DNA of 64,000 nucleotides from Torpedo marmorata (lineage: Eukaryota), in the NCBI GenBank assembly GCA_977017645.1, contig OZ360225.1, forward strand, positions 56,420,001 through 56,484,000, read 5' to 3'. Shown piece by piece: positions 29,086-52,256 of this stretch. Within the stretch, counting starts at the first letter, position 1. The number at the start of each line of letters is the position of its first letter. A program made the translations under genes and the position numbers. Under the pieces are notes generated by a model. It was not told where the DNA came from and ran no database searches. It saw nothing but the letters and a program-made list of their open reading frames with translations.

Positions 29086-30165
29086 GTAAGTTTTACTGTC
29101 ATCGCATACACCCACATCCAATTACTCGAAACATTGAACCTCGCCTTACTAGCTAATGAATTGCTGGCCTTCGGTTAAGATGGCACTCCCATTTATGATG
29201 GGAGAAAGTCAGAGAGAACATTCTTGGTGAATGTGAAAACTTTCTTTCTTGCCCACATTCTGAATCCAGTAAAGATGACACTATCACGTTGTGACTGACG
29301 GGCTCAAATGTTCCTGCCCATTTCTCTCCATGGATGTTGCCTAAACCCATTGACTCCCTCCAGCTTCACACTTTTTGCTCAAGGTTCCAACATCTGCAGT
29401 TCTTGTGCTTCCCTGGTCTTCCTAAATATTTATTTGTGTTTCAACAATATTTCAACTATTTTGGAGTGTTTTCTTTTGCTTGAACATACTTGTATGGGCT
29501 TGGCTCTTTAATAGTGAACCGATGCTAAAGATTTTGATGCTCTGTAATGTAACTCATTTCACCTTGGACATCCAGGCTGTTTCCTGGGTGAAGTTCCAGC
29601 AATATAATGCTTGATTTTGAACCTGGGAATCTCCCCTGACAGTACATCATTTCTTGGGGTTTGAGGCCAGTTGCATGCACAATAGAAGGAGTCTTGCTTC
29701 TGAGAGAAAAATTGCTGATGTAAAAAAGAATGGTGCACGTGGTTTGTATGAGAATCAATGCAGGAAGCAGGGAAGATGAGCAGAAACAAACCTAGCTCTG
29801 TATCAAGGTCCAAGCCAAGCCTTTGGATTATGCTCGGCCTCAACTAGAGTGAAGGGAGATCTTTAACAAGGCCTGCCTTTCTTTTGGGCCACTTGGGTGT
29901 TACAATGGCACTGTGGGTTGTGCGGCTGCCTCATAACTCCAGTGACCTAGGTTCAGTCCTGACCTCCAGGGCTGTCTGTGTGGAGTTTGCTCCCACGTTC
30001 CAAAGGCATGCTGGTTGGGAGGTCGATTGGCTGGTGTAGTAGATTATCTTCAGTGTGTAGGTAGGTGATGGGAGATCAAGGAAGTGTTAATGGCCTTGTG
30101 AGTGAGAAGAGATTTGTTGGAATATGTCAGGAAATGACATTAATAGCATTGTACTGAGAGCTGGC

Positions 30166-30398: not shown

Positions 30399-30414
30399 TT
30401 CACCCCTCCTTTTT
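30399..30414 (-). promoter_or_regulatory. Polypurine tract of the Gypsy element
   Basis: Minus strand AAAAGGAGGGGTGAA directly abuts the TG of the 3' LTR. Confidence 0.85.
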
Positions 30415-33388
30415 AAAAAGAGACCTGTGGGGTGAAGTGAATTAAAGTTCTCACAGATTCAGTCTTTCAGGTGGTCTGGTCTGCCGCTGCGACCGTCGTA
30501 GTACCGGCTGCGGCGCAGCTGTTGCATCCAGTCCTGAGTGGACCACCTGTGTGTTGTTGTCGGCTCTGTCTTGGTGGATGCGTGGCAGCGAAGTGTCTGG
30601 CAAGTCATCCCCCGGAGCTGGGGTCACTTGCCGTGGTAAGGGTGCATCGTGGGAGCGGTGGGTGGGGTGGGGGGGTGGTGCAGGGCAGTCGATGGTGGTA
30701 TCAGGGACTCCTGAAGGTGCCAGGTCCCGAACGGGGACTGTGTCCTCCCGCCCATCAGGATACGTCACGTAGGCGTATTGGGGGTTGGCGTGGAGGAGAT
30801 GGACCCTTTCGACCAGTGGGTCCTGCTTATGGCTCCTCGCATGCCTCCGGAGTAGGAACGGACCTGGGGACGTCATCCAGGACGGCAGCGTGGTCCCTGA
30901 AGCGGACTTCCTAGGAAAGGAAAACATTCTCTCATGTGAAGTGGCATTGGTGGCTGTGCACAAGAGTGATCTGATGGAATGGAGTGCCTCGGGGAGGACC
31001 TCTTGCCAATGGGAGACTGGAAAACCTCTTGACCTTAGGGCTAGGAGGGTGGCCTTCCAAACAGTGGGGTTCTCTCTCTCCACCTGCCCGTTCCCTCAGG
31101 GATTGTAACTGGTGGTCCTACTTGTGGCGATGCCTCTGGCCAGCAGGTACTGACGCAGCTCATCACTCAAAAAAGAGGACCCCCAGTCACTATAGATATA
31201 GCAGGGGTACCTGAAGAGGGTGAAAAGGTTGCGTAGGACCTTGATGACTGTGGCTGTGGTTATGTCCGGGCAGAGGATGGCAAACAGGAAACGTGAGTAC
31301 TCGTCAATAATGTTGAGGAAGTGCACGTTGCCGTCAGAGGAGGGAAGAGGTCCCTTGAAGTCAACGCTCGGGCGTTCAAAGGGGCGGGTGACTTTTATAA
31401 GGTGCGCTCTGTCTGGTCGGTAGAAGTGCAGTTTGCACTCTGCACAGATCTGGGAGTTCCTGGTCATGGTTCTGATCTCCTCGATGGAGTAAGGTTGGTT
31501 GCGGGCTTTTATAAAATGGAAGAATCTGGTGACCCCGGGGTGGCAGAGGTCGCCGTGGAGGGCTTGTAGGCGGTCTATTTGTGCGCTGGCATATATTCCA
31601 CGGGAAAGGGCATCTGGGGGCTCATTGAATTTACCGGGCCGGTACAAGATATCGTAATTGTAGATGGAATGTTCAATTCTCCACCTCAGAATCTTTTCGT
31701 TCTTAATTTTACCTCGCTGTTGGTTATTAAACATAAACGCAACTGAACGTTGGTCAGTTAGCAAGGTAAACCATTTTCCGGCGAGGTAGTGCCTCCAGTG
31801 CCGCACCGCCTCAACAATGGCTTGGGCCTCTTTCTCGACAGAGGAGTGTTGGATTTCTGGGCCCTGGAGGGTGCGGGAAAAGAAAGCTATGGGTCTGCCC
31901 GCTTGGTTGAGGGTGGTGGCCAGGGCGAAATCGGACGCATCGCTCTCCACCTGGAACAGGGTGGATTCGTCCACAGCATGCATCGCGGCCTAGGCGATGT
32001 CCGCTTTGATGCGGCTGAAGGCCGCACGGGCCTCTGACGTCAGGGGAAAAGAGGTGGATTTGACGAGGGGGCGGGCCTTGTCCGCATAATTGGGGATCCA
32101 CTGGGCATAATAGGAAAAGAAGCCCAGGCACCTTTTCAGGGCTTTGAGGCTGTGGGGAAGTGGGAGTTCCAACAGGGGGCGCATGCGGTCTGGGTCTGGG
32201 CCAATCACTCCATCCTGTATGACACTGCCAAGGATGGCCAGGCATGTTGTGCCAAAGACGCATTTATCCTTATTATAAGTAAGGTTGAGGAGCTTGGCGG
32301 TCTGAAGGAATTTTTGGAGGTTGGCTTCATGGTCCTGTAGGTCATGGCCGCAAATGGTGATATTATCCAGATACGGGAATGTGGCCTGCAGCCCGTGCCG
32401 GTCGACCATGCGGTCCATCTCCCACTGGAAGACCGAGACCCCGTTGCTGACACCAAAGGGGACCCTCAGGAAATGATAGAGGCGGCCAGCTGCCTCAAAG
32501 GCAGTGTATTGGCGGTCCTCCGGTCGGATGGGGAGTTGGTGGTATGCCGACTTTAAGTCGATGGTGGAGAATACCCGGTATTGGGTGATCTGATTCACCA
32601 TGTCGTCTATGCGGGGGAGGGGTACGCATCCAGCTGCGTATATCTGTTGATGATCTGACTATAATCGATGACCATCCTGTTCTTTTCCCCATTTTTTACC
32701 ACTACCACTTGGGCTCTCCAGGGGCTGGTGCTGGCTTCGATGATCCCTTCCTTCAATAGCCGTTGCACTTCCGACCGGCACTGTATCGCCTACTTTTGGT
32801 GGCCACGGGTTTGGAATCGGGGGTACGATTAGCGAACAACAGTGGGGGGGTGATCCGGAGGGTAGAAAGGCCACAGGTCGCGCGCGGTGGGCGGTCGGCG
32901 GGTCGCTGGCTGGACGCGATGGGAGGGGGATGCGGGGAGCTTCTGTGGGTGACTTGCGATGGGCGGTTCACAAACTGTGGATTACAGATGGTAAGAGGGG
33001 TGTGGGGCCCATCGTACTCCAACGTCACGCTTTTAAGGTGACATTGGAAGTCTAGCCCCAGCAGCACGTCCGCGCAGAGCTGTGTCATGACAAATAACTT
33101 AAAGTTTTTATATTCTGTGCCCAGTACAGTCAGGGTCACTATGCAGTACCCGCGGATCTCTGCTGTGTGAGACTTGGAAGCCATGGAGACTTTGTGGCTT
33201 ACAGGCGTTACCGCGAGTCGGTAACGCTGTACCGTTTCGGGGTGAATAAAGCTCTCTGTGCTCCCACTGTCGAAAAGGCAGCTCATCCTGCGGCCATCCA
33301 CCTCAATGTCCATCATCGATCTGGCCAGTTGATGGGGACTCCCTTGATCGAGAGTGATGGAGGCCAGTACGGAGTCGCTGTAGGATTT

Positions 33389-33645
33389 GCACGCGGCGCT
33401 GCTGGGTGGGGAAGATGGCATCGTCCAAGATGGCGGCCCCCGTGGTTCGCACGCAGCGCTGCCAGGTCGGGAAGATGGCGTCGTCCAAGATGGCGGCCCC
33501 CATGGTTCGCACGCGGCTCTGCTGGGTGGGAAAGATGGCGTCGTCCAAGATGGCGGCCCCCATGGTTCGCACAGGGTGCTGCTGGATTGGGAAGATGACG
33601 TTGTCCAAGATGGCGGCGCCCTCTGCTCGCACGCAGCGCTGCTGG
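33389..33645. repeat. 60-bp tandem repeat (about 4.3 units) inside gag-pol
   Basis: Lines 33421, 33481, 33541 and 33601 align in register; the minus strand encodes 20-aa repeats ACEPWGPPSWTTPS in ORF 32753..34081. Confidence 0.95.
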
Positions 33646-34464
33646 ATCTAGCAGGCGGTTGGGACTTACAGACTTTTGCGTAGTACCCCTTCTTCCTGCA
33701 GTTAATGCAGACCACGTCTTTCGCCGGGCAGCGTTTCCGTGGGTGCTTATTCGAGCCGCAGAAGTAGCACTTCAGCTGGTTGCGGGTCATACCAGCCGTG
33801 GTCGAGTCGGTAACGGAACGTGGCGGTGTTCCACAGGCTTGTGACCCTCCCGCATCCCAAGACGGCAGCGCCCACTGCAACCACGGTGTGGCCGCGCTAT
33901 AGGCCGCGTAGGCGTCCATGTTTTGGAGGGCCACTTCTAATGTGTCCGCTAGGTGCACAGCCTTCCACAAATCGAGCTCACCTTGCTCCAAAAGTTTCTG
34001 CCTTATGTAGTTAGATCGGACACCGGCAACATAGGCATCCCTTATGAGGTCCTCAGTGTACGTCGCGGTCATAACGGCCACGCAGTTGCAGGCCCGTCCG
34101 AGGGTTCACAGGGCTAGTAGGTATTCATCACTCGATTCCCCAGGTCGCTGTTTTCTGGTAGCTAGGGGATGTCTTGCGTAGACTTGGTTTACCTTCTTCA
34201 GGTACGGCCTTTTTGCGTCTCCATAGCCTCCTGGTAGGATTCAGCGTCCCTGATCATCAAGTACACCTGGGGCCCGACCCGGGAATGTAGTAGTTGTAGT
34301 TTGTCGTCTTCCGATTGTACGACAGCAGCGGAGGCCCTCAAGAATGCCTCGAAACAACGCAGCCAGTGTTCGAAACAGTTGGATGCCTCAGGTGATCGAG
34401 GGTCAAGCTCCAACTTTTCTGGTTTCAGGTACTTATCCATTATTGAAAACAATGTGAATAAAAT

Positions 34465-34688
34465 TGATGCACCATCAATAACTCCAAAGACTAGAAGTTA
34501 GACAGGAACTGATAGGCTTTTATTCACATTGGAATGGATGTACAGTCCTGGTGGTCGTCTGAGCTGGACTGGGGAGGGAGTTGTGGCACAATAGCCTTTA
34601 TTCAGGGGTCTGTGGGAGGAGCCACAGGTACAGCTAGTAAGGGGCGTGTCCAGAAGACCATGAGCATGTATTTACAGTGGTTACCACA
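34465..34688 (-). repeat. 5' LTR of the Gypsy element (224 bp)
   Basis: Direct repeat of 30166-30398; by hand alignment, 7 substitutions plus one 8-bp and one 1-bp indel. Confidence 0.95.
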
Positions 34689-35078
34689 CTGGCATTGATT
34701 CAATATAGACTCAATAGGATGAACACCCTCCTCCTCTGTCATAAGGAAATATGGTGCCATACTTCTGCTTAATTTAACCTGCGTAAGGTGATCTTGGGAG
34801 GAGGCACAGAGCATGGCTGATGGCAGGGAAGTGTGGACTTCATGTGGTTGCTTGCTTTTCCTGCAAGCCTCAGGCTACCAAGGAACTAAATGGACAGGGA
34901 ATTCCTCAAAGTTCCTTTTGTTCTAGAGACATTAATTCAAGGAAAGCATGGCTTTGACTTCAGTCCCTCACCTCTGAGCCTTCCCCGCCTATAATGAGGA
35001 ACAAGGATGAAGGAACCTGAAAGTAATATGACTGAATATATTCAGGCCAATTGATCCATGGTTTTTTTCTGTTACTAG

Positions 35079-35132: not shown

Positions 35133-35924
35133 GTGAGTACTTTTCCATTTCTGACACAATCTTCACATGTTTAAAGTGATCAGTGTTGTTTTGTTGTGTG
35201 TTGTTACCTGGTGCTAAAACACCATACACACCTTTGATAAACTTTAAGGCAAAGGTGCATTTATTTTGTCTCTGTTTCATTTTGGAAATGTTTCTGTTTC
35301 CTTGTTGGCTCCCTGTGGCTGCATGTTTCGTTCTGGGTGCAGTTACTCATAACAGCTCAAGAGGAGGCTGCAGAATTACTATTCTAGAGCAGATGCTGCA
35401 CCAGTACTCACATCATATTAGAAAATTGATGCAGAATGAAGTGCATTTAAATCTGTGACTTTTTGACATTAATGGTGGGAGGTCTCTGCTACTATAAGCA
35501 CACCAACAATACAATATATTGTTCAAATATTAACAAATGGCTGAGGGAATGAACAGGAAGAATTCTCCTTTGTTAACACTGAAGACTGCTATTTGTTTGG
35601 GCAGGGATACGATGATTGGTCGACCAACTATAGTTGCATGATGGTATGTAATAATTATTATCAAAGCATCCAGTAGCAGGGAGTTGGGAGGAGAATATAT
35701 TCATAATAATCTTGTACTTAACAAGCATCTCAGTGAAATATAAAGGATTCCTTTCTAGATGATTAGATGCAATAAAGCTATTACTTCTCAGCGGAGAGTC
35801 CAGAATTGGGAAGCATGTTCTAGAATTAAGGGTTGGCCATTTATGCTTGAGGCGAGGGGAGATTTCTTTAAACAGAGTTGTAAAACTTTGAGGTACTGCG
35901 GATGCTCAATCATTGAGTGTAGAC

Positions 35925-38345
35925 CAGGGGTGGGCAACCTTTTTTTTAAAACTCACATTCCACCTTAAGTAATCCCTATGCCAAGTGCTCTGTGATTAGT
36001 AAGGGATTGCTTAAGGTGATATGTGAGTAATTTATACATTTGAGAAATAAACTTATTAACATTTGCTTTAGTTATTAATAATTCTAACTCATTATGTCTT
36101 GGAGCAATCAAATCTTCTCCTAATTTCTCAACCAGAAAAGCTTTAACTTGATAATAAGCTAACCATGTATTATCTAATACATTAAATTTTTCCTTCAATC
36201 TTTGAAACGTAACAAATCTTTAAAATTCTTAATTCCTTTTTGAAACCATGCTTTCAATAACTGATTATTCATAGTAAATAATAAAAGTGGATTTTGATAT
36301 AATGGCATATTTAAAGAAATTAATCCTCTCCCGCCTATTTCTTTATCTACCTGTGTCCATATTTCCAACAAATGTTTAATAATCGGTGAATTTTTCTTTT
36401 TTACTAATAATAATTTAGAATTCCACTTGTAAATAATATCCTCTTTATAATTTTCTCCTATATTATTTAATTCTATATTAACCCAAGCAGAAGTTTTAGC
36501 TAAATCAAAAAATTCATTAACAAATTTTAATTGAGCTGCTTTATAATAATATTGAAAATTAGGAAGTTGCAATCCTCCCATCTCATAATTCCATGTTAAC
36601 TTATCCATACTCACTCTTGCTAACTTCTCTTTCCATAAAAATTTCCTAATTATAAACTTTAAATCTTTTTAAAAAAAATTTGGAATTCCAAAAGGAATTG
36701 ATTGAAAAAGATATTGAATTCTTGGAAAAATATTCATCTTAATACAATTTACTCTCCCCGTTAAAGTTATAGGCAAATCTTTCCAATTTTCCAAATCTTT
36801 CTTTATTTTCGTAAATAAAGGTACATAATTTAATTTATATAAATTTTCTAATTTTGTATCCACTTTAACTCCCAAATATTTAATTCCTTCTTTTGCCCAC
36901 TTAAATTCCGTAACTTCTCTACACCTAGTATAATCACCTTGGGATAAAGCCATTATTTCACTTTTATCTGAATTAATTTTATACCCAGATATTTCACCAT
37001 ATTCTGTTAATATAATAGCTAATTGTTGAAGTGATGTAATTGATTTCGTCATATATATTAATACATCATCTGCAAACAAACTAATCTTATGCTCTTCCAT
37101 ACCGACTTTAATCCCTACTATATTAGGATCTGTCCTAATCAATTCAGCTAAAGGTTCTATTGCCAAAACAAATAAATTATTTCAGAGAAAAATGCCTAAA
37201 GTAGGATTACATAAATCAAGATTAAAATGGAAATTAGATTTAAATGTTAATATAGCTGAAAAACTTTGGGAAGATTTATGTAAGTTAAGTATGACTAAAG
37301 TTATTAATGTTAGATATAGATTAGTACAATATATTTTTTTTCATCAATTATATTTAACACCAAAAAATTAAAGAAATTTAACCCGACATTGTCGGATTTG
37401 TGTTTTAGATGTAAGAATGAAGTAGGTTCTTTTGTTCATTCTACATGGTTATGTCCAAAAATTCAAGATTTTTGGCTGAAAGTTAAGAATTTTTTAGAGA
37501 GAGTTTTTAATGTTATGATTCCAATGGACCCTATGTTATTTCTATTTGGAGATATTATAAAATTTAGTATTAGGAATAGATTGAATATGTATCAGGTAGA
37601 ATTTTTGCGAATTGCTTTAGCTGTCTCAAAAAAATGTATTGCTATTACTTGGAAATCAGATTTAGATTTAAATTTAGATAGGTGGCATGCAGAACTTCGT
37701 TCGTGTATTCCTTTGGAAAAAAGTACTTACAATTTACGTAATAAATATCATTTATTTTTAAAAATTTGGAGCCCATATATGAGAGTTATGGGTTTAAGGA
37801 TTTGAAATCTCTTGAAATCAGGTCTATTGGCGAGTTTAACCTCCAGGATAAAATAAGTTTTTAGATGGTTCTCTCCTCACTATTAATTTACTTTTCTTTT
37901 TCTTTTTTTTAATTATTTTTAGATTAGTGGGGTTGGGGGGGTTAGGGAAGGGTGGGAGGGTTTGGGGGGAGGGAATTTATATCACTTGTATTTTGGAAAC
38001 TATATATTTTGATTTGTGTATTGTGTGATTTAAAAATTTAAATAAAATATATTTTTTAAAAAAGGTGATATGTGAGTGGAAAGAAAAAGTTTGAAAACCA
38101 CTGCTTTAATCATACCTAATTAACTCGTTATGTGCACGGTTTCATAACTCCAAAGGAAATGGGCCAATGACAATTTTTCTCAAATGAAATATTTCAGTAA
38201 CAATTGGGTCCAGAGCAATGGTTCTCAGCCTTCCCTTTCCACTCACATACCACCTTAAGCAATCCCTTACCAATCACAGAGCACTGATGGCATAGGGATT
38301 ACTTAAGGTGCAATATGAGTTTTAAAAAAAGGTTGCCCACCCCTG
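35925..38345. mobile_element. hAT-type MITE interrupted by the L1
   Basis: TIR CAGGGGTGGGCAACC / GGTTGCCCACCCCTG; 8-bp TSD GTGTAGAC at 35917-35924 and 38346-38353. Confidence 0.92.
36029..38061 (+). mobile_element. L1-clade LINE, 5'-truncated with 5' inversion
   Basis: 36029-37175 is antisense ORF2 (KISLFADDVL). 37173-38061 is sense ORF2 C-terminus (CFRC...H...C), 3' UTR and A-rich tail. The 16-bp TSD AAGGTGATATGTGAGT is at 36013-36028 and 38062-38077. Confidence 0.93.
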
Positions 38346-38955: not shown

Positions 38956-41900
38956 ATAACATATAACATATAACAATTACAGCACGGAAACAGGCCATTA
39001 GGCCCTTCCAGTCCGCACCGAACCAAACATTCCTATCTAGTCCCACCTACCTGCACCCTGCCCATAACCCTCCACTTCCTTCTCATCCATATACTTGTCC
39101 AACTTTTTCTTAAATAATAAAATTGACTCTGCCGCCACTACTTCTCCCGGAAGCTCATTCCACACCGCTACCACTCTCTGAGTAAAGAAGTTCCCCCTCA
39201 TGTTACCTCTAAACCTCTGCCCCTTAACTCTTAGCTCATGTCCTCTTGTTTCAATCTCTCCTATTCTTAATGGAAATAGTCTATCCACATCCACTCTGTC
39301 TATCCCTTTCATAATTTTAAATACCTCTATCAAATCCCCTCTCAACCTTCTACGCTCCAAAGAATAAAGACCTAATCTGCTCAATCTCTACTTGTACTCT
39401 AGATTCTTAAACCCAGGTAACATTCTGGTAAACCTTCTCTGCACTCTCTCCACCTTGTTGATATCCTTCCTATAATTTGGCGACCAGAACTGCACACAGA
39501 ACTCTAAATTAGGCCGCACCAAAGCCTTATATAATCTCAACATCACTTCCCAACTCCTATATTCTATGCAATGATTGATAAAGGCCAGCATACTAAAAGC
39601 ATTCTTCACCACCCTATTCACATGAGTTTCCACCTTCAGGGAACGATGCACCGTTATTCCTAAATCTTTCTGCTCTTCTGTATTCATCAATGCTCTCCCA
39701 TTTACTACATATGTCCTGTTCTGATTCTTCTTACCAAAATGAAGCACCTCACACTTATCAGCATTAAACTCCATCTGCCATTTTTCAGCCCACTTTTCTA
39801 AGCAGCCCAAATCCCTCTGCAATCCTTGAAAACCTTCTTCATTATCCACTATTCCACCTATCTTAGTATCATCTGCATATTTACTAATCCAGTTTACCAC
39901 CCCATCATCTAGATCATTGATATATATAACGAACAACAATGGGCCCAATACAGATCCCTGAGGCACACCACTGGTCACCGGCCTCCAACCTGACAGACAA
40001 TTATCCACTACCACTCTCTGGCCTCTCCCTTCCAGCCAATGTTCAATCCATTTGACTATCTCAGAATTTATACCTAAAGACTACACCTTCCTAACTAACC
40101 TTCCATGCGGAACCTTATCGAAGGCCTTACTGAAGTCCATATAGACAACATCCACCGCGCTACCCTCATCCACATTCCTAGTCACCTCTTCAAAAAATTC
40201 AATCAGATTGGTCAAACAGGACCTTCCACTCACAAATCCGTGTTGAGAGTTCCTGATCAGACCCTGTCTATCCAGATATTTATAAGTACTATCTCTGAGA
40301 ACTTTCTCCATTAATTTACCTACCACAGACGTCAAACTTACAGGCCGATAATTGCCAGGCTTCCTCCTTGAACCCTTTTTAAATAACGGAACCACATGCG
40401 CAATACGCCAATCCTCCGGCACTATCCCCATCTCTAATGACATTTGGAAAATCACCGTCAGAGCCTCTGCTATTTCTTCGCTTACTTCTCTCAAGGTCCT
40501 GAGGAAGATCCCATCGGGTACCGGAGACTTATCCACCTTTATATGCCTCAAAAGCCCTAACACTACATCTTTCGTAATCCCTATATTCTCCATATTTACC
40601 CAATTTGCTTTTTTAATCTCGCATATCTCAATATCCTTCTCCTTGGTGAATACCGAAGAAAAGAAACTGTTCAATATCTCCCCCATTTCTCTAGGCTCCA
40701 CACACAGTTTTCCGCTCTGATTCTCTAAGGGACCAATTTTGTCCCTCGCTTTCCTTTTACCATTAACGTATTTGTAAAAACCTTTTGGATTAATTTTCAC
40801 CCTGCTTGCTATAGTCTCTTCATACCTTCTTTTAGCTTTCCTAATTCCTCTCTTAAGATTCTTTTTACATTCAATGTATTTTTCAAACATCTCCTTATTT
40901 CCATGCTTCTTATACTTAATGTACGCCTCCCTTTTTTTTCGAACCAAGTTTCCAATATTCCTTGAAAGCCATGGCTCTCTCAAACCTTTTGCCCCTCCTT
41001 TTAACCTAACAGGAACATAAAGCTTTTGCACTCTCAAAATCTGATCTTTAAAAGACTTCCATCTCTCTACTACATCCTGCCCATAAAACAAATTGTCCCA
41101 ATGCACACCCTGTAAGTCCCTTCGCATCTCCTCAAATCTAGCTTTTCCCCAATCAAAAACCTCAACCCTTGGCCCTGACTTATCTCTTTCCATAATGACA
41201 TTGAAACTGATGGCATTATGATCACTGGACCCGAAGTGCTCGCCAACACAAACCTCCGTCACTTGACCTATCTCATTTGCCAACAGTAGATCTAACACTG
41301 CTCCTTCTCTGGTTGGTACCTCTACATATTGTTGTAAAAAACTATCCTGCACACATTTCACAAACTCCAACCCATCCATCCCTTTCACAGAATGTGTTTC
41401 CCAATCTATGTGTGGAAAATTAAAATCTCCCATAATCACAACCCTGTGCTTATCACAAATATCCACTGTCTCCCTACAGATTTGCTCCTCTATGGCTCGG
41501 TCCCCTCCGGGTGGTCTATAATACACCCCTACAAGTGTAACTTCTCCTTTCCCACTTCTCAGTTCTACCCAAATAGCCTCCGTGGACGAGCCCTCTAATC
41601 TATCCTGCCTAAGCATCGCTGTAATATTCTCCCTGACAAGCAATGCAACACCACCTCCTCTTGCTCCTCCGACTCTATCACACCTAAAGCAACGAAACCC
41701 AGGGATATTCAACTGCCAATCACATCCCTCCTGCAACCATGTCTCACTAATCGCTACCACCTCATACTTCCAAGTATCAATCCACACCTTCAGCTCATCC
41801 ACCTTTTTTACAATACTCCTGGCATTAAAATATATGAATTTCAGAGATTTCCTACTTAATCTCTGTTTGCCCTTATCTTTAGTAACCTTCTCTATCACCT

Positions 41901-43140
41901 GCCCATCCATATTCAAACACTGACTACAAACTTTCTCTGTTCTAACCTTCTCCTTATTGATCTGTACTATTTTACTCCCTCCCCCCAACCTTTCTAGTTT
42001 AAAGGCTCCTGAGTAGCCCTAGCAAATACCCCTGCCAGGATTCTGGTCCCCCTGGGATTCAAGTGTAACCCGTCCTTACTGTACAGGTCACATCTCCCCC
42101 AAAAAAGGTCCCAGTGATCCAGAAACTTGAAACCCTGCCCCTTACTCCACCCCTTCAGCCACGTGTTAATCCTCCACCTCATTCTATTTCTACTCTCACT
42201 GTCACGTGGCACAGGGAGTAATCCGGAGATTACCCCCTTTGCGGTCCTTCTTTTTAACTCCCTACCTAACTGCCTGTACTCACTTTTTAGGACCTCTTCT
42301 CTATTCCTCCCTATGTCATTGGTACCTACATGTACCACGACCTCTGGCTCCTGTCCCTCCCCCTTTAGGATATCCGGGACACGAGTAGCAACATCCTGGA
42401 CCCTGGCATCAGGGAGGCAAACCACCATCCGGTTCTCCTTGCTGCGTCCACAGAATCCCCTATCTGTCCTCTTGACTATGGAGTCCCCTACGACTATTGC
42501 CCTCCTCTTCCTTTCCCTACCCTTCTGAGCCACAGGGGCTGACCCCGTGCCAGAGGCACAGCCACTGCTGCTCCCCCAACTATGCTGTCCTCCTCAACAG
42601 TACCCAAAGAGGCGTACTTATTGCTGAGGGTTACAGTCATAGGGCTCCTTTCTGGCTCCTTATATTTTACTGTCCCTCTTCTAACTGTTACCCACCTTTC
42701 CTCCTCCCGTGGCCCTGGTGTGACCACCTGGCTGTAACTCCTGTCTATGACCTCCTCTGTTTTTCTAACCAGCCTGAGGTCATCGAGCTGCAGCTCCAGT
42801 TCCCTAACACGGTCCCTAAGAATCTGCAGCTCTACACACCTCGTGCAGATATGGACATCAGGGAGTCTGGAAGACTCCAGGACCTCCCACATTTGGCACT
42901 CCCAACAACACACAGCCCTAACACTCATCCTGGACCCCAATGAAATCGTAATATGAGAGAATTTAAGACTCTTACCTTAGTGTTCAGTGACGCGTCCTCA
43001 GCCTGTGCTCGTCGAAGCCTGTCGAGTCAAAGCCGGAAGGAAGAGTTCCACTCCTTCGCTGTCCCCACTCACTCGCCTGGGCCGCTCACTCGCTGCCGCT
43101 CCCAAACCTCACCTTTAGTCTTACACTACTTAATGTAACG
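38956..43140 (-). mobile_element. Near full-length CR1-clade LINE (ORF1 with zinc finger, coiled coil and SGNH esterase; ORF2 APE-RT)
   Basis: ORF1 pieces 42494..42940 and 41994..42533 (IVVGDS, HVGTND, DGLHL) are joined by one frameshift. ORF2 41988 to 39037 has two in-frame stops (40081, 39388) and motifs YFNARS, SETWL, GDFN, SDH, GVPQGSVLGP, YADD. The 3' tail is (GTTATAT)n near 38956-38975. The 5' end is approximate. Confidence 0.95.
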
Positions 43141-44669: not shown

Positions 44670-46225
44670 CATTAAAGATGAGGAAGTGCTTGCTGTCTTA
44701 AAGCAAATAAGGGTGGATAGATCCCCAGGGCCTGACAAGATATTCCCTCGCACCTTGAGGGAGGCTAGTGTAGAAATCTCAGGGGCTCTGGCAGAAATAT
44801 TTAAAATGTCCTTAGCCACAGGTGTGGTGCCACAGGATTGGAGGGTAGCTCACGTTGTTCTGTTGTTTAATAAAGGCTCAAAAAGTAACCCTGGAAATCA
44901 GTAGTAGGTAAATTATTGGAAGGTATTCTAAGAGATCGTATATACAATTATTTGGATAGGCATGGACTGATTAGGCATAGTCAACATGGCTTTGTGCGTG
45001 GTAGGTTGTGTTTAACCAATCTTATAGAGCTTTTCTAGGAGGTTACCAGGAAAGTTGACGAAGGAAAGGCTGTAGATGTTGTTTACATGGACTTTAGTAA
45101 GACCTTTGACAAGGTCCCACATGGGAAGTTAGTCTGGAAGGTTCAGACGCTCAGTATTCATGGTGAATTAGTGAACTGGATTCGACAATGGCTGGACAGG
45201 AGAAGCCAGAGAGTAGTGGTGGATGATTGCTTCTCAGACTGGAGGCCTGTGACTAGTGGAGTGCCTCAGGGATCAGTGCTGGGACCATTGTTGTTTGTCA
45301 TCTTTATCAATGATCTGGATGATAATGTGGTAAATTGGATTAGCAAGTTTGCAGATGACACTAATATTGGAGGTATTGTGGACAGCGAAGAAGGTGTTCA
45401 AAGCTTGCAGAGGGATCTGGACCAGCTGGAAAAATGGGCTAAAAAATGGCAGATGGAATTTAATGCAGACAAGTGTGAGGTGTTGCATTTTGGAAGGACA
45501 AACCAAGAAAGGACATACACGGTAAATGGTAAGGCAATGAGGAGTGGGGTATAACAGATGGATCTGGGAATACAGATACATAATTTCCTGAAAATGGCAT
45601 CACAGGTGGATAGAGTTGTAAAGAGAGCTTTCGGCATATTGCCCTTCATAAATCAAAGTACTGAGTACAGGAGTTGGGATGTTATGGTAAAGTTGTATAA
45701 GACATTGGTGAGGCCAAATTTGGAGTATTGTGTGCAGTTTTGGTCACCTAACTACAGGAAAGATATCAATAAGATAGAAAGAGTGCAGAGAAGATTTACT
45801 AGGATGTTGCCTGGACTTCAGGAACTGAGTTACAGGGAAAGGTTAAACAGGTTAGGACTTTATTCCCTGGAGCATAGAAGAATGAGGGGAGATTTGATCG
45901 AGGTATTTAAAATTATGAGGGGGATAGACAGAGTAAATGGAGATAGGCTTTTTCCATTGAGGGTAGGTGAGATACACACCAGAGGACATGGGTTAAGAGT
46001 GAAAGGGGAAATGTTTAGGGGAACATGAGGGGGAACTTCTTCACACAGAGAGTGGTGGGAGAGTGGAACGAGCTTCCAGCTGAAGTGGTGAATGCGGGCT
46101 CAATTTTAACATTTAAGAGGAATTTGGACAGGTACATGGATGGGAGAGGTATGGAGGGCTATGGACTGGGTGCAGGTCAGTGGGACTAGGCAAAATAAAT
46201 GGTTCGGCACAGACTAGAAGGGCCA
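44670..46225 (+). mobile_element. 5'-truncated CR1 LINE (RT region and 3' end)
   Basis: ORFs 44686..44904, 45087..45554 and 45558..46028 with GVPQGSVLGP, FADD and LVRPNLEYCVQFWSP; related to the CR1 at 38956-43140. Confidence 0.93.
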
Positions 46226-48449
46226 CAGTAAGGATCACAGTCTAGGGTCTTTTCTGCTACTGGGCATTCAGGGGCTGAGACTGGTGTGGAAGACCCTCAA
46301 ACAATGGAGAAGGAAGTAACCACAGTGGGCCATGGTGCAATGTAGTAAAATAAAGGATTAACGTTACAATGTACAGTAAAGGAATGTTAATATGAATATG
46401 ACACTAAGAATGTGAAAAAGCTTTGCATTGGTTTCCTTTGTATATATTTTTGTTGTGAATAAAGTTTATTCTTGAAATTTACAAAAAATGTCTTCCACCT
46501 TCATTAGATATGAGAGAAGTTCTGGAGTAGTGCTAATGTTACCAGCACTGAATCAGTAGTGAGAGAGAGAAAATAATTGGAAACTCTAGGCCAGTCAGAT
46601 GATGGAAATTATTAGAGATTTTGATCATAGACAAATATATTTTCATTGGTCATGATGTAAGCTGGTCAAGGAGAGCCAATGTTAATTTGTTGGAGGTAAA
46701 CTATATATAAGGAACTTTAAGTTATTTGATATGCAGAATGAGTTGATGAGGATAGAGTTTTTTTCCATGTCTTATGGGTGCCATGCAGGAGGCTTATTGT
46801 GAAGACTGAAGCCTAAATATTGCTTCTATTTATTCAATCACAAGATATGGAGGGCAATGCCAGCAATTTTCATACATCCCTAGTTGCCTCCAAACTGAGG
46901 AAACAGTTAAGAGTCAACCACTTGGAGTCATATATCGGCCAGACAGGTAAGGATAGCAGGTTTCCGCCCCCGGCTGTCCACAGAGCATCAGTGTACCAGA
47001 TGGGATTTTATGATTATCCAGCAGTTTCATGGTTACTGTTACTGAGGCCAGCCTTTTCTTTTAAATTCCAGTTTAATTTCATTATTTAAATTTAAATTCC
47101 CCAGTTCCCACAGTAAGACTTGAACCCATGACAAGTGAACATTCGTCCAGAACTGTCTGTTTGTTCAATAACTTAACCATTATGGTACCATAACCCAGAA
47201 TTGAAGTGAAGGCAGTGGATGTTGATTTGTTGGTGGGAAGCAGAGAGTGGTGATGTGGGTGGGGGTTGACGTGGCGGTTTGAAGGTTTTGTTTAATATTC
47301 TTTTAGAATGTAAGAACATTGAAAACATTGTGTAGGACACTCAGCTCCTCAAGCCTTCCCTGCCACTCAATGTCATCTTAGCTGATCTGCCCGAGGCCTC
47401 ATCTCCTCTTCTGTGCCAGTTCCACAAGGCCCTCAATTCCCTAATCTTGTCAAATTTACCCAATTCCTCTTTAAATACCTCACAAATTATCTCGTCTCCA
47501 CAACTCTCTGAGGTAGAAAATTCCAGAGATTCACCACCCTCTGCAAGAAGAAAGACCTACATACTGTACAGTTTTAAATGACAGCTCCCCGATCTTGTAT
47601 TATGTCCTTTCATTTGAGGATCTCCCACTGTTAGAAACCCTCACTGTGATCCAGAGCATTTGTCAAAGCTGTCACTTTATGTTCTGAATGTGGGTTTGAC
47701 TGAACATAGGCCCATAAAGTCCTTGCTATCTGTGGAAAGGTGGTTGGTGCAGTCTCTTCCTGTATTTCATTGGAGTACTGACATGTCCATTCATCATTAT
47801 TGGTGGTGTTTAGAGATCTGGATAAATTCCCTTTCCATTCCCTTGGAGCCAAAGACTTCCCATTTCTTCTGGAGCTGGCCATTTGAAGCAAGATGCTTCT
47901 CTATTGATGTGTGGGTAGAGGTGCTTAGGACCTGTAATAACCTTTGTGCCACAGCATTTTGGCTTCCTCCTCCCACAACCAAAATTTAAGGAGCCAAATT
48001 GGCATCAGCCAGGCTTCAGAGACATTTGGATCTTTGCATGCAGGAAGAACCCATTATCATATGGCAAGTCTAGTGCAAGTTGCTGAGGACAGATTTCTAC
48101 CCCAGGCTCAGAGCAACAGAGAGATAACGTAGTGCTATTAGTATGCTCTTCTTGAGGCACAAGCTACAGACATCTTAGTGGAGATACAATCATGACCTCA
48201 TAGGTGGACTTTAGCCAAGGAATCAGGCCTTACCTGTTCTCTGCAATCAGTTTTGTTGAAGATTTCAACGTCTACAATAGACGCAGGAGTAGGCCATTCG
48301 CCCTTCGAGCCAGCACCGCCATTCATTGTGATCATGGCTGATCATCCACTATCAGTCTACACTTTTATGAATTGCCACTTATATGAAAGTCTTGTCAACT
48401 GGATAACTTAATTAATAATTCTGAAACTTAGAATAGCATTGGGTTTGGA

Positions 48450-50012
48450 GGCAGTCCCTTGATCGGTGAGGAGATGAGGAGAATCCTATCCAAGGGAAAC
48501 CCACACATGGCAGCGGGACCAGACAACATATCTGGCCGGGTACTGAAGGACTGCGCAGACCAATTGACAGAGGTCTTCACAGACATCTTCAACACATCAC
48601 TGCAGCAGTCCATCGTTCCCGCAGGGGTCAAGACAGCCACCATCATCCTGGTACCCAAAAGGGTGACAATAACAGGCCTCAATGACTACCACCCTGTGGC
48701 ACTGGCCTCCACCATTATGAAATACTTTGAGCGTCTGGTGATGGAACGCATCAAAGTACACCTCCCAGAGGTGCTGGACCCATTTCAATTCGCCTATAGA
48801 AGAAACCGTTCCACAGACGATGCTATAGCCTTGTCCCTTCACTCCGTCCTGACCCACCTGGAGAATGACGCTTCATATGCCAGCCTGCTGTTCATTGACT
48901 TCAGCTCGGCATTCAATGCAATCATTCCCCAGAGGCTGGTGGAGGAACTGTCCTCACTGGGACTCAACACCCCTCTGTGTAACTGGATTCTGAACTTCCT
49001 AGCGGAAATACCACAGTCTGTTCGGGTCGGTAGCAGATCGTCGAGCACCGTCTCGCTGAGCACTGGCTCACCTCAGGGCTGTGTGCTCAGCCCGCTCCTG
49101 TTCATGCTACTGACCCACATCTGCATCGCCAGATCCAGCTCCAACAGTGTCATCAAGTTTTCAGATGACACAATAGTAGTTGGCCTACAGAGAAGAGGTG
49201 GGAAATCTCGTGATATGGTGCGAGAGTAATAACCTGAGTCTCAACGTGGACAAGACGAAGGAGATGAACGTGGACTTCAGGAGGACCAGGAACGACCACC
49301 CTCCACTACACATCAACAACTCTGTAGTGGAGAGAGTGGAGAGCACCAAGTTCCTTGGAGTTCATTTAACTAGTGACCTATCATGGACACTTAACATCTC
49401 CTCACTTGTCAGGAAGGTGCGACTGCACTTACTGAGAAGAGTGAAGCGGGCAAGGCTACTGGCCACCATCATGTCAATCTACTATAGGAGCTCTATCGAG
49501 AGCGCCCTGGCCAGCTGCATCACAGTGTGTTACAGTTGCTGCAGAGAAATGGATTGGAGGTCAATCCTCAGGACCATAAGTGTGGCAGAGAGGATCACTG
49601 GAGTCTCCCTCCCATCCCCCCCCCTCGCCCCCCCCCCTCCACCCATCTACGAGATCTACCGGGATCATTGTCTGAAGTGGGTGTGCAAAATCATTGAGGA
49701 CCCCTTCCACCCTGCACACAGCATCTTTCAGCTGCTCCCGTCGGGGAAGAGATATAGGAGTATCAGAGCAAGCACCACCAGGCTGAGGAACAGCTTCTTC
49801 CCATGGGCAGTGAGAATGCTGAACGACCAAAGGAACTGCTCGCACTAACCATCCGAGACTCTCATATTCATGAAACAATATTTATTTATTCATTTATTTG
49901 TAGATAGGAATACTTGTCCTGCATATGTATTGTGTTACGTCTGGTTGTGTGCTTCGTCAGGTTGTACTTGTGCATACAGATGACAATAAACTTGACTTGA
50001 CTTGACTTGACT
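48450..50012 (+). mobile_element. Rex1/Babar-like non-LTR retrotransposon, 5'-truncated
   Basis: ORFs 48459..49229 and 49180..49848 ([36 protein letters not shown]); AATAAA followed by (CTTGA)4 at 49985-50010. Confidence 0.88.
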
Positions 50013-50789: not shown

Positions 50790-51880
50790 GTAATGCACTG
50801 TAGCTTAGTAGTAACTAATAGCTATGAATTATATCGTTATAGACTTGCATATAAGATGACCATTTATCTATCTGCTCTATCCCTTCACATTGTTCATCTA
50901 CTTCCTTGCTGTTACTATCAAACTAATAGCTGTCTTGTCCTCTTTTAAGTTATCTAGCCCCAGCACAACCTTCTGTTTTCCCATCCCTGATTGCCTGAAT
51001 TTATTTTTGTATGAATTTTTAAAAATCTATTTAACCACAATTTTTTATTACATTTCTAACAGAATGTTCCTGGATCTAAATTTACTAAAGACCATGTTAA
51101 TCAATGGGCTCATCCCACCACATTCTACCAAAAGTCATACTCTCAAATATGTATCAGGGAGAGAGACTCCCTCATGGTCCCTTATACTGGAGTGTCCAAA
51201 ACTAATCTCCTTCTTCCCACCAAATATTTACTCACGTTTCACTTAAATCATGCATTGAATTGTGTCTCAAACACTCCATGTTGAAAATTTGTTCCAATGA
51301 TCCTTCCTATAATGAAATTTCACCTCTCCCCAATTTGGAGAGGATTTTAATTCCATGACTCCTTCTCTTGGATTCCATAATTAAGGAAGTCAATTTTTCC
51401 ATGTGTACTCCATCAAAATCTTCCCTAAGTTTAAAAAAAATCTCAGACAAATTTCCAACCTTTCTCTGTCTCAGTCATGGTGCCATCTTCTATGAACAAT
51501 TTCCAATCATGGATATTATTCAAGGAAACCAAAGCAATGAGTTTTCATTTGTTTAAATCCAGTAGTATTTTCCTGTTATCTTTCCAAAGTTTTGCAGAAG
51601 GTTAAAATTTCCACCTTCCTCTCTTACTTTGTTTCAACCCTAAAAATTATTTGCCAGATGATTCCATATTGAACTTTGAGAGACGTGTGGCTGGCAATGC
51701 AATGTCCTTCCACATGTTTCTCCTTTTTCTTCTACATCACTATGACGGCACACTACAACTACATTACATTGTCCAACTACCTATTCTGCCAAGCGGTTTT
51801 CTTGAAGGTTCTGGGAGTCTGTGACATTGCCCGCAATCTCTTCCTTCCTTATTATCATCAGTAAATTTTGATACCTTAGT

Positions 51881-52256
51881 CCGGGGTTTCCCAAACTTTT
51901 TCTTTCCACTCGCATTCCACTTTAAGTAATTCCTATGCCATAGGTGCTCTGTGATTAGTAAGGGATAACTTAAGGTGGTTCGTGAGTGGGAAGGGAAGGT
52001 TGAGAACCACTGCTCTAGACCCAATTGTTACTGAAATATTTTGCTTGAGAAAAATTGTCATTGGCCCATTTCCTTTGGAGTTATGAAACCGTGCACATAA
52101 TGAGTCAATTAGGTACGATTAAAACAGTGGTTTTCAAACTTTTTCTTTCCACTCACATACCACCCTAAGTAATCCCTTACTAATCACAGAGCCCCAATGG
52201 CATAGGGATTACTTAAAGTGGTATGTGAGTGGAAAGAAAAAGTTTTGGAAACCCTG
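51881..52256. mobile_element. Related hAT MITE, uninterrupted, opposite orientation
   Basis: Same arms and central segment as 35925-38345 in reverse complement; termini CCGGGGTTTCCCAAAC / GTTTTGGAAACCCTG; no clear TSD. Confidence 0.85.

Follow-up and report, generated by a model that had tools for sequence, protein, structure and literature searches.

To our knowledge self-priming of reverse transcription has been proven for Tf1 alone, and among Gypsy elements it is treated as a mark of the Tf1/sushi group. The primer-binding site of Tf1 pairs with the element's first 11 bases and RNase H cuts the RNA between bases 11 and 12 (PMC7175516), a DNA copy of the primer is made at the cDNA's 3' end (PMC11042837), and priming requires three duplexes (bioRxiv 10.1101/2022.12.06.519325). 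Self-priming has been described for Tf1/sushi, for Tcn1 and for the TAR lineage of Copia (PMC6317226, PMC4600332, PMC5341516).

The locus described here has, as do Tf1, Tf2 (Schizosaccharomyces pombe), Tj1 (S. japonicus), Tosmo1-3 and Tcry1, a site after the 5' LTR that complements its own LTR and not a tRNA, and it shares with the Tf1-type chromoviruses a core of 11 nt and a stem beside the site (PMC7175516, PMC4600332, PMC5341516, bioRxiv 10.1101/2022.12.06.519325). It differs in that a chromodomain is absent from the open reading frames of the window (Pfam) and from 40/40 full-length relatives, whereas all seven fission-yeast elements have one (bioRxiv 10.1101/2022.12.06.519325), in being found in animals, in a pairing of 11-19 nt that often lies over the poly(A) signal, and in being known from sequence alone. 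The vertebrate Tf1/sushi elements (sushi-ichi) and the Tcn1 clade are likewise Gypsy elements predicted to self-prime, fish included (PMC6317226, bioRxiv 10.1101/2022.12.06.519325), but they are chromoviruses, and the tree presented here holds no Tf1/sushi reverse transcriptase (RT). In the plant Ty1/copia TAR lineage (Houba, Osr-1) self-priming is predicted from a complement of at least 10 nt lying 0-5 nt past the LTR (PMC6317226), thus the trait exists outside chromoviruses, although TAR belongs to another superfamily, with another domain order, and to plants. A tRNA site is also lacking in the fungal GalEa Copia elements, which have a 'conserved hairpin site' (PMC5445492), but both arms of that hairpin lie after the LTR and no complement was found in the LTR, whereas here one arm is inside the LTR.

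The window, by which is meant the whole 64-kb stretch of Torpedo marmorata OZ360225.1 that was analysed, holds a decayed Gypsy element of 4.5 kb on the minus strand with the paired stretches at its 5' end. Its features are as follows.

34689-34693 and 30161-30165, minus strand: target-site duplication GCCAG, flanking both ends of the element
34688-34465, minus strand: 5' LTR, 224 nt, TGTGG...CATCA, a direct repeat with the 3' LTR
34570-34602, minus strand: candidate alternative promoter-like pair, AATAAAGG (34602) with a CCAGT whose A is 34570 (32-nt spacing)
34532-34537, minus strand: CCATTC, outer edge of the pairing, kept in the host families, in which the next 7 nt vary; initiator-like, candidate start region
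34531-34518, minus strand: LTR arm CAATGTGAATAAAA, the putative self-primer, with AATAAA at 34524-34519 and GCC directly after
34478-34464, minus strand: LTR-end hairpin TTGATG-GTG-CATCAA, 6 bp, adjoining the primer site, in the position of the U5 inverted-repeat stem
34463-34450, minus strand: putative primer-binding site TTTTATTCACATTG, starting after a single A (34464) past the LTR
30451-34440, minus strand: gag-pol, broken by several frameshifts and stops
30399-30414, minus strand: polypurine tract, recognised from its sequence, with an identical tract in sister families
30398-30166, minus strand: 3' LTR, 233 nt, carrying the arm with no complement downstream

The element is a Ty3/Gypsy LTR retrotransposon, as its TG...CA LTRs, target-site duplication, polypurine tract and domain order all agree. 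The Pfam domains of its gag-pol follow the Gypsy order, protease, RT, RNase H, integrase, two zinc knuckles are seen by eye, and the top solved-structure match of its RT is that of Ty3 (104 bits). The start of the 5' LTR is common to 30 copies with differing flanks, and the two LTRs of the element differ by 7 substitutions and two indels. Within gag, between the zinc knuckles and the protease, lies an in-frame tandem repeat of 60 bp (33389-33645, 4.3 copies) that encodes a 20-residue unit rich in Pro, Ser and Trp.

The site TTTTATTCACATTG is the exact reverse complement of CAATGTGAATAAAA over 14 nt, which is the longest complement between the LTR and the 40 nt downstream of it, and both 14-mers are confined within the window to the two LTRs and the primer-site position. 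The Tf1-type definition, a site complementary to its own LTR over at least 10 nt, therefore describes this element. Folding of the 100-nt leader gives -27.9 kcal/mol (z -5.6, with 0/200 shuffles equally stable). For the matching stretch of the 3' LTR and its flank z is +0.8, and the fold exists only at the 5' LTR. An earlier note on this DNA had described a perfect complement of an AATAAA-bearing LTR stretch one base after the LTR, the lack of a TGG-type site, a gag ATG about 25 nt past the LTR and a 3' LTR without a downstream complement, and all of this holds: TGG is absent from the position in 30/30 best-matching copies and the ATG, at 34440, is 24 nt past the 5' LTR. The hairpin that it saw at the LTR end is present, here with 6 bp, but in the minimum-energy fold the left arm pairs with GCCTATCAGT instead. 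This hairpin has 6 bp in 10/11 host-genome families, where the sixth pair is G-C, G-U or A-U, with no excess of covariation over shuffles (255/500), and 1-8 bp in other families. A search of Rfam returned nothing beyond a chance match to MIR397 (E 0.96 and 18 bits, where the gathering score is 55), and no tRNA gene was found in the 64-kb window.

Evidence that the pairing is maintained comes from the host genome of 6.2 Gb, where a first look gave 2,359 DNA candidates for the 5' region and about 49,000 protein candidates for the gag start, both lower-confidence counts. By eye, 26 of the 30 best-matching copies (window copy included) retain all 14 pairs. Queries taken from the gag starts of three relatives in sharks and rays led to sister families. 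The host families differ in the seven bases that precede AATAAAA, and the site changes to match, with arm/site variants CAATGTG/CACATTG, TGTAGTT/AACTACA, TTTTGCC/GGCAAAA, TATTGTT/AACAATA, TATAACT/AGTTATA and six more. Examination of 90 gag-anchored loci left 84 scorable copies, 59 of them perfect and spread over 11 distinct paired arm types; the 1176 cells comprise 1,127 Watson-Crick, 43 mismatched and 6 G-U, and the 25 imperfectly paired copies are what decay would predict. At the level of the 11 host families, pairs 1-14 are Watson-Crick in 154/154 cases. Across 15 rows, hand-picked to span the types and with two imperfect rows among them, both sides change at 7/14 pairs, in 27 cells against 8.3 in shuffles (0/500), a test that is inflated by the kinship of the sequences. 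Sliding the register lowers the paired fraction of these rows from 97% to 37-54%, a control that is free of the kinship flaw, yet favours a structure drawn from its own rows. Covariation between the 14-mer after the LTR and the 14-mer within it was among the checks proposed in the earlier note; once run it gave 11 perfect types, with complementarity kept across diverged families.

In two copies (L254 and L256) both LTRs have acquired a new arm change and the site still has the older letter. This would be the expected intermediate of a primer-copying cycle, although any change made during copying would look alike. The copy L253 (G000:C22:139325300-139331000) is chimeric, its 5' LTR having the variable 7 arm bases of another subfamily and its 3' LTR being followed in tandem by a partial LTR of that subfamily; it is regarded as a later recombination and was left out of the start-site evidence. 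Three further copies (L008, L009 and L010) have an identical 5' flank, which points to duplication of a segment and not to independent insertions.

The same arrangement is found well beyond the host. A metagenome scan considered the best 80 of 522 relatives. A gag start is present in 49 of them, and after removal of one that lacked upstream DNA 48 were tested by one rule. With RT-RNase H sequences about 46-63% identical to the query relative, 39/48 of these loci have a perfect complement of 11-19 nt, matched by 0-1 of 60 shuffles per locus. Of the nine that fail, two have <60 nt upstream, three have the arm in register by eye with one or two breaks, one of these a G-U, and L078, L079, L109 and L112 have no explanation. 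The passing loci were collapsed by hand into 24 families, in which the site starts one base past an LTR-type CA and the 3' end of the arm pairs with the base nearest the LTR. The complement has a mean length of 14.3 nt in a family's own pairs against 4.5 nt in cross-family pairs, and only 4/600 cross-family pairs reach 11 nt, all of them between families with near-identical arms. Pairs 1-14 in the 24 families comprise 325 Watson-Crick, 11 mismatched and 0 G-U, where predicted inner helices have 41 G-U of 266 pairs; the absence of G-U from pairs 1-14 extends to all 35 chosen families (24 distant and 11 host), a count biased by the choice and registration of families through perfect complements. 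The distance between arm and site is 24-87 nt.

At its 3' end the arm finishes in AAA in nearly all of the distant families, and the next base is a purine in 24/24, followed by C in 23/24 and C in 22/24, an edge (AAA/RCC) that is conserved across the lineage. Within the arm, position -10 is G in 23/24 distant and 10/11 host families and position -11 is A in 19/24 of the distant ones (L061-L128); these letters may belong to an initiator or to an enzyme-recognition site.

The predicted self-priming signature is thus a trait of the lineage, in which the pairing is kept and the letters differ. It is likely that the element, which has no tRNA primer site, primes reverse transcription with the RNA of its own LTR arm, as Tf1 does. 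Position, polarity and strict pairing are all as priming requires. In the proposed cycle the LTR arm would fold onto the site in the 5' leader and the RNA would be cut past the last A of the arm (AAAA/GCC), probably by the RNase H of the element by analogy with Tf1. The new 3' A end could then prime minus-strand DNA through U5, the stretch between the cut and the poly(A) site would serve strand transfer, and at a later step the progeny's primer site would receive a copy of the primer. Such copying would let the two sides of a pair change together without G-U steps.

The three-duplex 'pretzel' of Tf1 is not supported for this lineage: the central duplex is seen, the stem near the site is variable, and the third duplex, between U5 and leader, was rejected because in a simple duplex test it is at shuffle level (mean z -0.06 and +0.18, with 1/35 below -2). 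A short inner GCC helix of 3-7 bp that opens at the proposed cut beats shuffles at p<=0.05 in only 6/35 families.

Where the transcript begins bears on how close the geometry is to that of Tf1. On balance a start no more than about 5 nt from the arm's outer edge, which would be plain Tf1 geometry, is slightly more likely than not. This is supported by the position of an initiator-like HAGY, by the length of the Tf1 primer and by the sharp edge after CCATTC in the host genome; the A of HAGY lies 11 nt before the arm end, where the cut is proposed, in 15/24 families, with the next-best position reaching 5/23. A start 11 nt before the cut would leave the pairing of bases 12-14 and beyond without explanation, and the pairing does extend 2-8 nt past the HAGY A in most families and covaries there. 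TATA-like motifs 24-38 nt before position -11 occur in only 3/24 distant families. In the host families AATAAAGG stands 32 nt before CCAGT in 74/77 scored copies and CCAGT stands 39 nt upstream of the arm in 69/76, a pair that would fit an earlier start, upstream of the arm, although a start 39 nt upstream would give a primer with a long unpaired 5' part, unlike that of Tf1. The earlier note had placed the primer in the poly(A)-signal region 'rather than' at the extreme 5' end, and here the self-priming half of that claim is supported but the contrast has hints both ways, as the RNA may begin with the paired stretch, in which case the contrast may be false. For its broader proposal, self-priming independent of tRNA, there is good support in the covariation, the register, the polarity and the strictly Watson-Crick pairs.

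The upstream promoter-like pair, in making a primer of Tf1 type unusually long, also lends something to a different form of self-priming, in which the primer would be a separate short RNA or a 3'-end piece of the transcript ending at the arm, for instance from 3'-end processing at AATAAA, and not a leader cut by RNase H. The arm does lie over the poly(A) signal and finishes in A's, both LTRs carry it, and covariation is blind to which copy donates; against this the 5' arm lies close enough to its site (24-87 nt) to favour folding in cis and 11/24 families have no strong hexamer in the arm. Polyadenylation cleavage, moreover, normally falls past the hexamer, usually by 10-30 nt, and not at its end. 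This form of priming is considered improbable.

The hexamer counts also weigh on the suggestion, made in the earlier note, that the pairing serves to mask the poly(A) signal in the 5' LTR. AATAAA is inside the arm in 11/11 host families and 6/24 distant families, and either AATAAA or ATTAAA in 13/24, the fold is confined to the 5' LTR and conservation within the arm is strongest at its A-rich end, all of which would suit a pairing that merely hides the signal, or regulates the leader, with priming by some other unseen route. However, 11/24 distant families have neither hexamer in the arm; three of these (L063, L064 and L094) have AATAAA or ATTAAA outside the duplex, and in one hexamer-less family the arm ends TGAAGA and the site TCTTCA matches it. 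Masking requires neither a site that starts one base past the LTR nor strict Watson-Crick pairs, and it would leave the element without a primer site. Since a hexamer lies in the paired stretch of only 13/24 families, masking alone is disfavoured and has quite a low probability; it is not the lineage-wide reason for the pairing, whilst in the 5' LTR here the pairing may hide AATAAA as a side effect. Priming by a tRNA half or other host RNA, with the LTR match incidental, has a precedent in the half-tRNA priming of some Copia lineages (PMC6317226), but it is very improbable given a site that lacks a TGG start, at least 11 forms in a single genome that each fit their own LTR, and cross-family matches that fall to 4.5 nt.

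The predicted self-priming signature also sets these elements apart from other Gypsy elements of the same genome. Seven elements of two other host lineages, a control set with complete LTR ends that excludes two further elements with incomplete ones, never have a complement >5 nt, and in five of them TGG lies no more than 6 nt from the LTR end, while one has TGGG after TATTT and one has TAGG. By their motifs and the order of their domains these lineages are presumably of Mag type and Gmr1 type. The RT of the present lineage is 24-33% identical to theirs, and in a quick RT-RNase H tree of 52 rows its 42 rows fall on one branch (SH-aLRT 99) apart from the other ten, the tree comprising only the present lineage and the two other host lineages, with no chromovirus row and a midpoint root for drawing only. 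The separate RT branch and the TGG-type sites of those groups speak against membership of either the Mag-type or the Gmr1-type group. A young family, presumably of Mag type (for example L235, L239 and L243), has a TGG-type primer site and LTRs of about 146 nt, and many of its copies hold frames that stay open over 1,300-1,400 codons.

As the lineage has no chromodomain it is not filed under Tf1/sushi. Of 95 candidates from a Chromo search of the host genome only 15 matched a chromodomain, where gag candidates number about 49,000, and an SH3_Tf2-1 search for sushi-type outgroups gave other lineages and the present one. Chromoviruses are said to 'usually contain' the domain (bioRxiv 10.1101/2022.12.06.519325), so some lack it, and its absence lowers, but does not end, a Tf1/sushi claim. 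The closest named RT relatives come from rays and sharks (67-83% identical), then from cnidarians, a damselfly and many other records (53-65%); the lineage is represented in cartilaginous fishes, cnidarians, a damselfly and many marine records. Viral contigs gave 53 pattern matches with 0 relatives among them. Cigr-1, with a length of about 4.2 kb and LTRs of 245 nt, resembles the present lineage in these sizes. It or the MolGy clade, both non-Mag metazoan Gypsy groups (PMC6238403, PMC8556966), is a lead only, by description and not by sequence; the available passages on them have 0 mentions of PBS or primer binding, and three motifs sought in 5 supplements of PMC6238403 to name the clade had no match.

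That a chromodomain-less animal lineage would have come to self-priming independently of Tf1/sushi and without the pretzel, with a stretch internal to R that doubles as the poly(A) signal, so that a single duplex would hide this signal at the 5' end and also supply the primer, is a tentative and rather unlikely reading. Repbase entries may mention self-primed Gypsy elements in invertebrates. No report of self-priming in a chromodomain-less animal Gypsy lineage was found in the literature searched, and as Repbase reports and subscription journals lay outside the search an earlier notice is possible. If the proposed priming is correct, a second and chromodomain-less self-priming lineage would mean either an independent origin or a trait older than thought, in a lineage that is very abundant in the 6.2-Gb host genome (about 49,000 candidate gag places, a lower-confidence count) and spread across animals. 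Such elements would be independent of host tRNA and would presumably escape control by tRNA fragments, and annotation that requires a tRNA site misses them. The natural variants of arm and site reveal which letters are important (AAA/RCC, G at -10), and through them the chemistry of the proposed cut becomes directly testable.

Other repeats are present in the window. LINE fragments with a Pfam endonuclease and/or RT lie at 39388-42018 (-), 48432-49848 (+), 45039-45554 (+) and 36669-37181 (-), and the piece 49183-49845 matches ALKBH8_N. A short dispersed repeat (families D4 and D8) with a palindromic look inside is found at 35897-35977, 38235-38334 and 51854-52244, and is possibly a non-autonomous DNA transposon.
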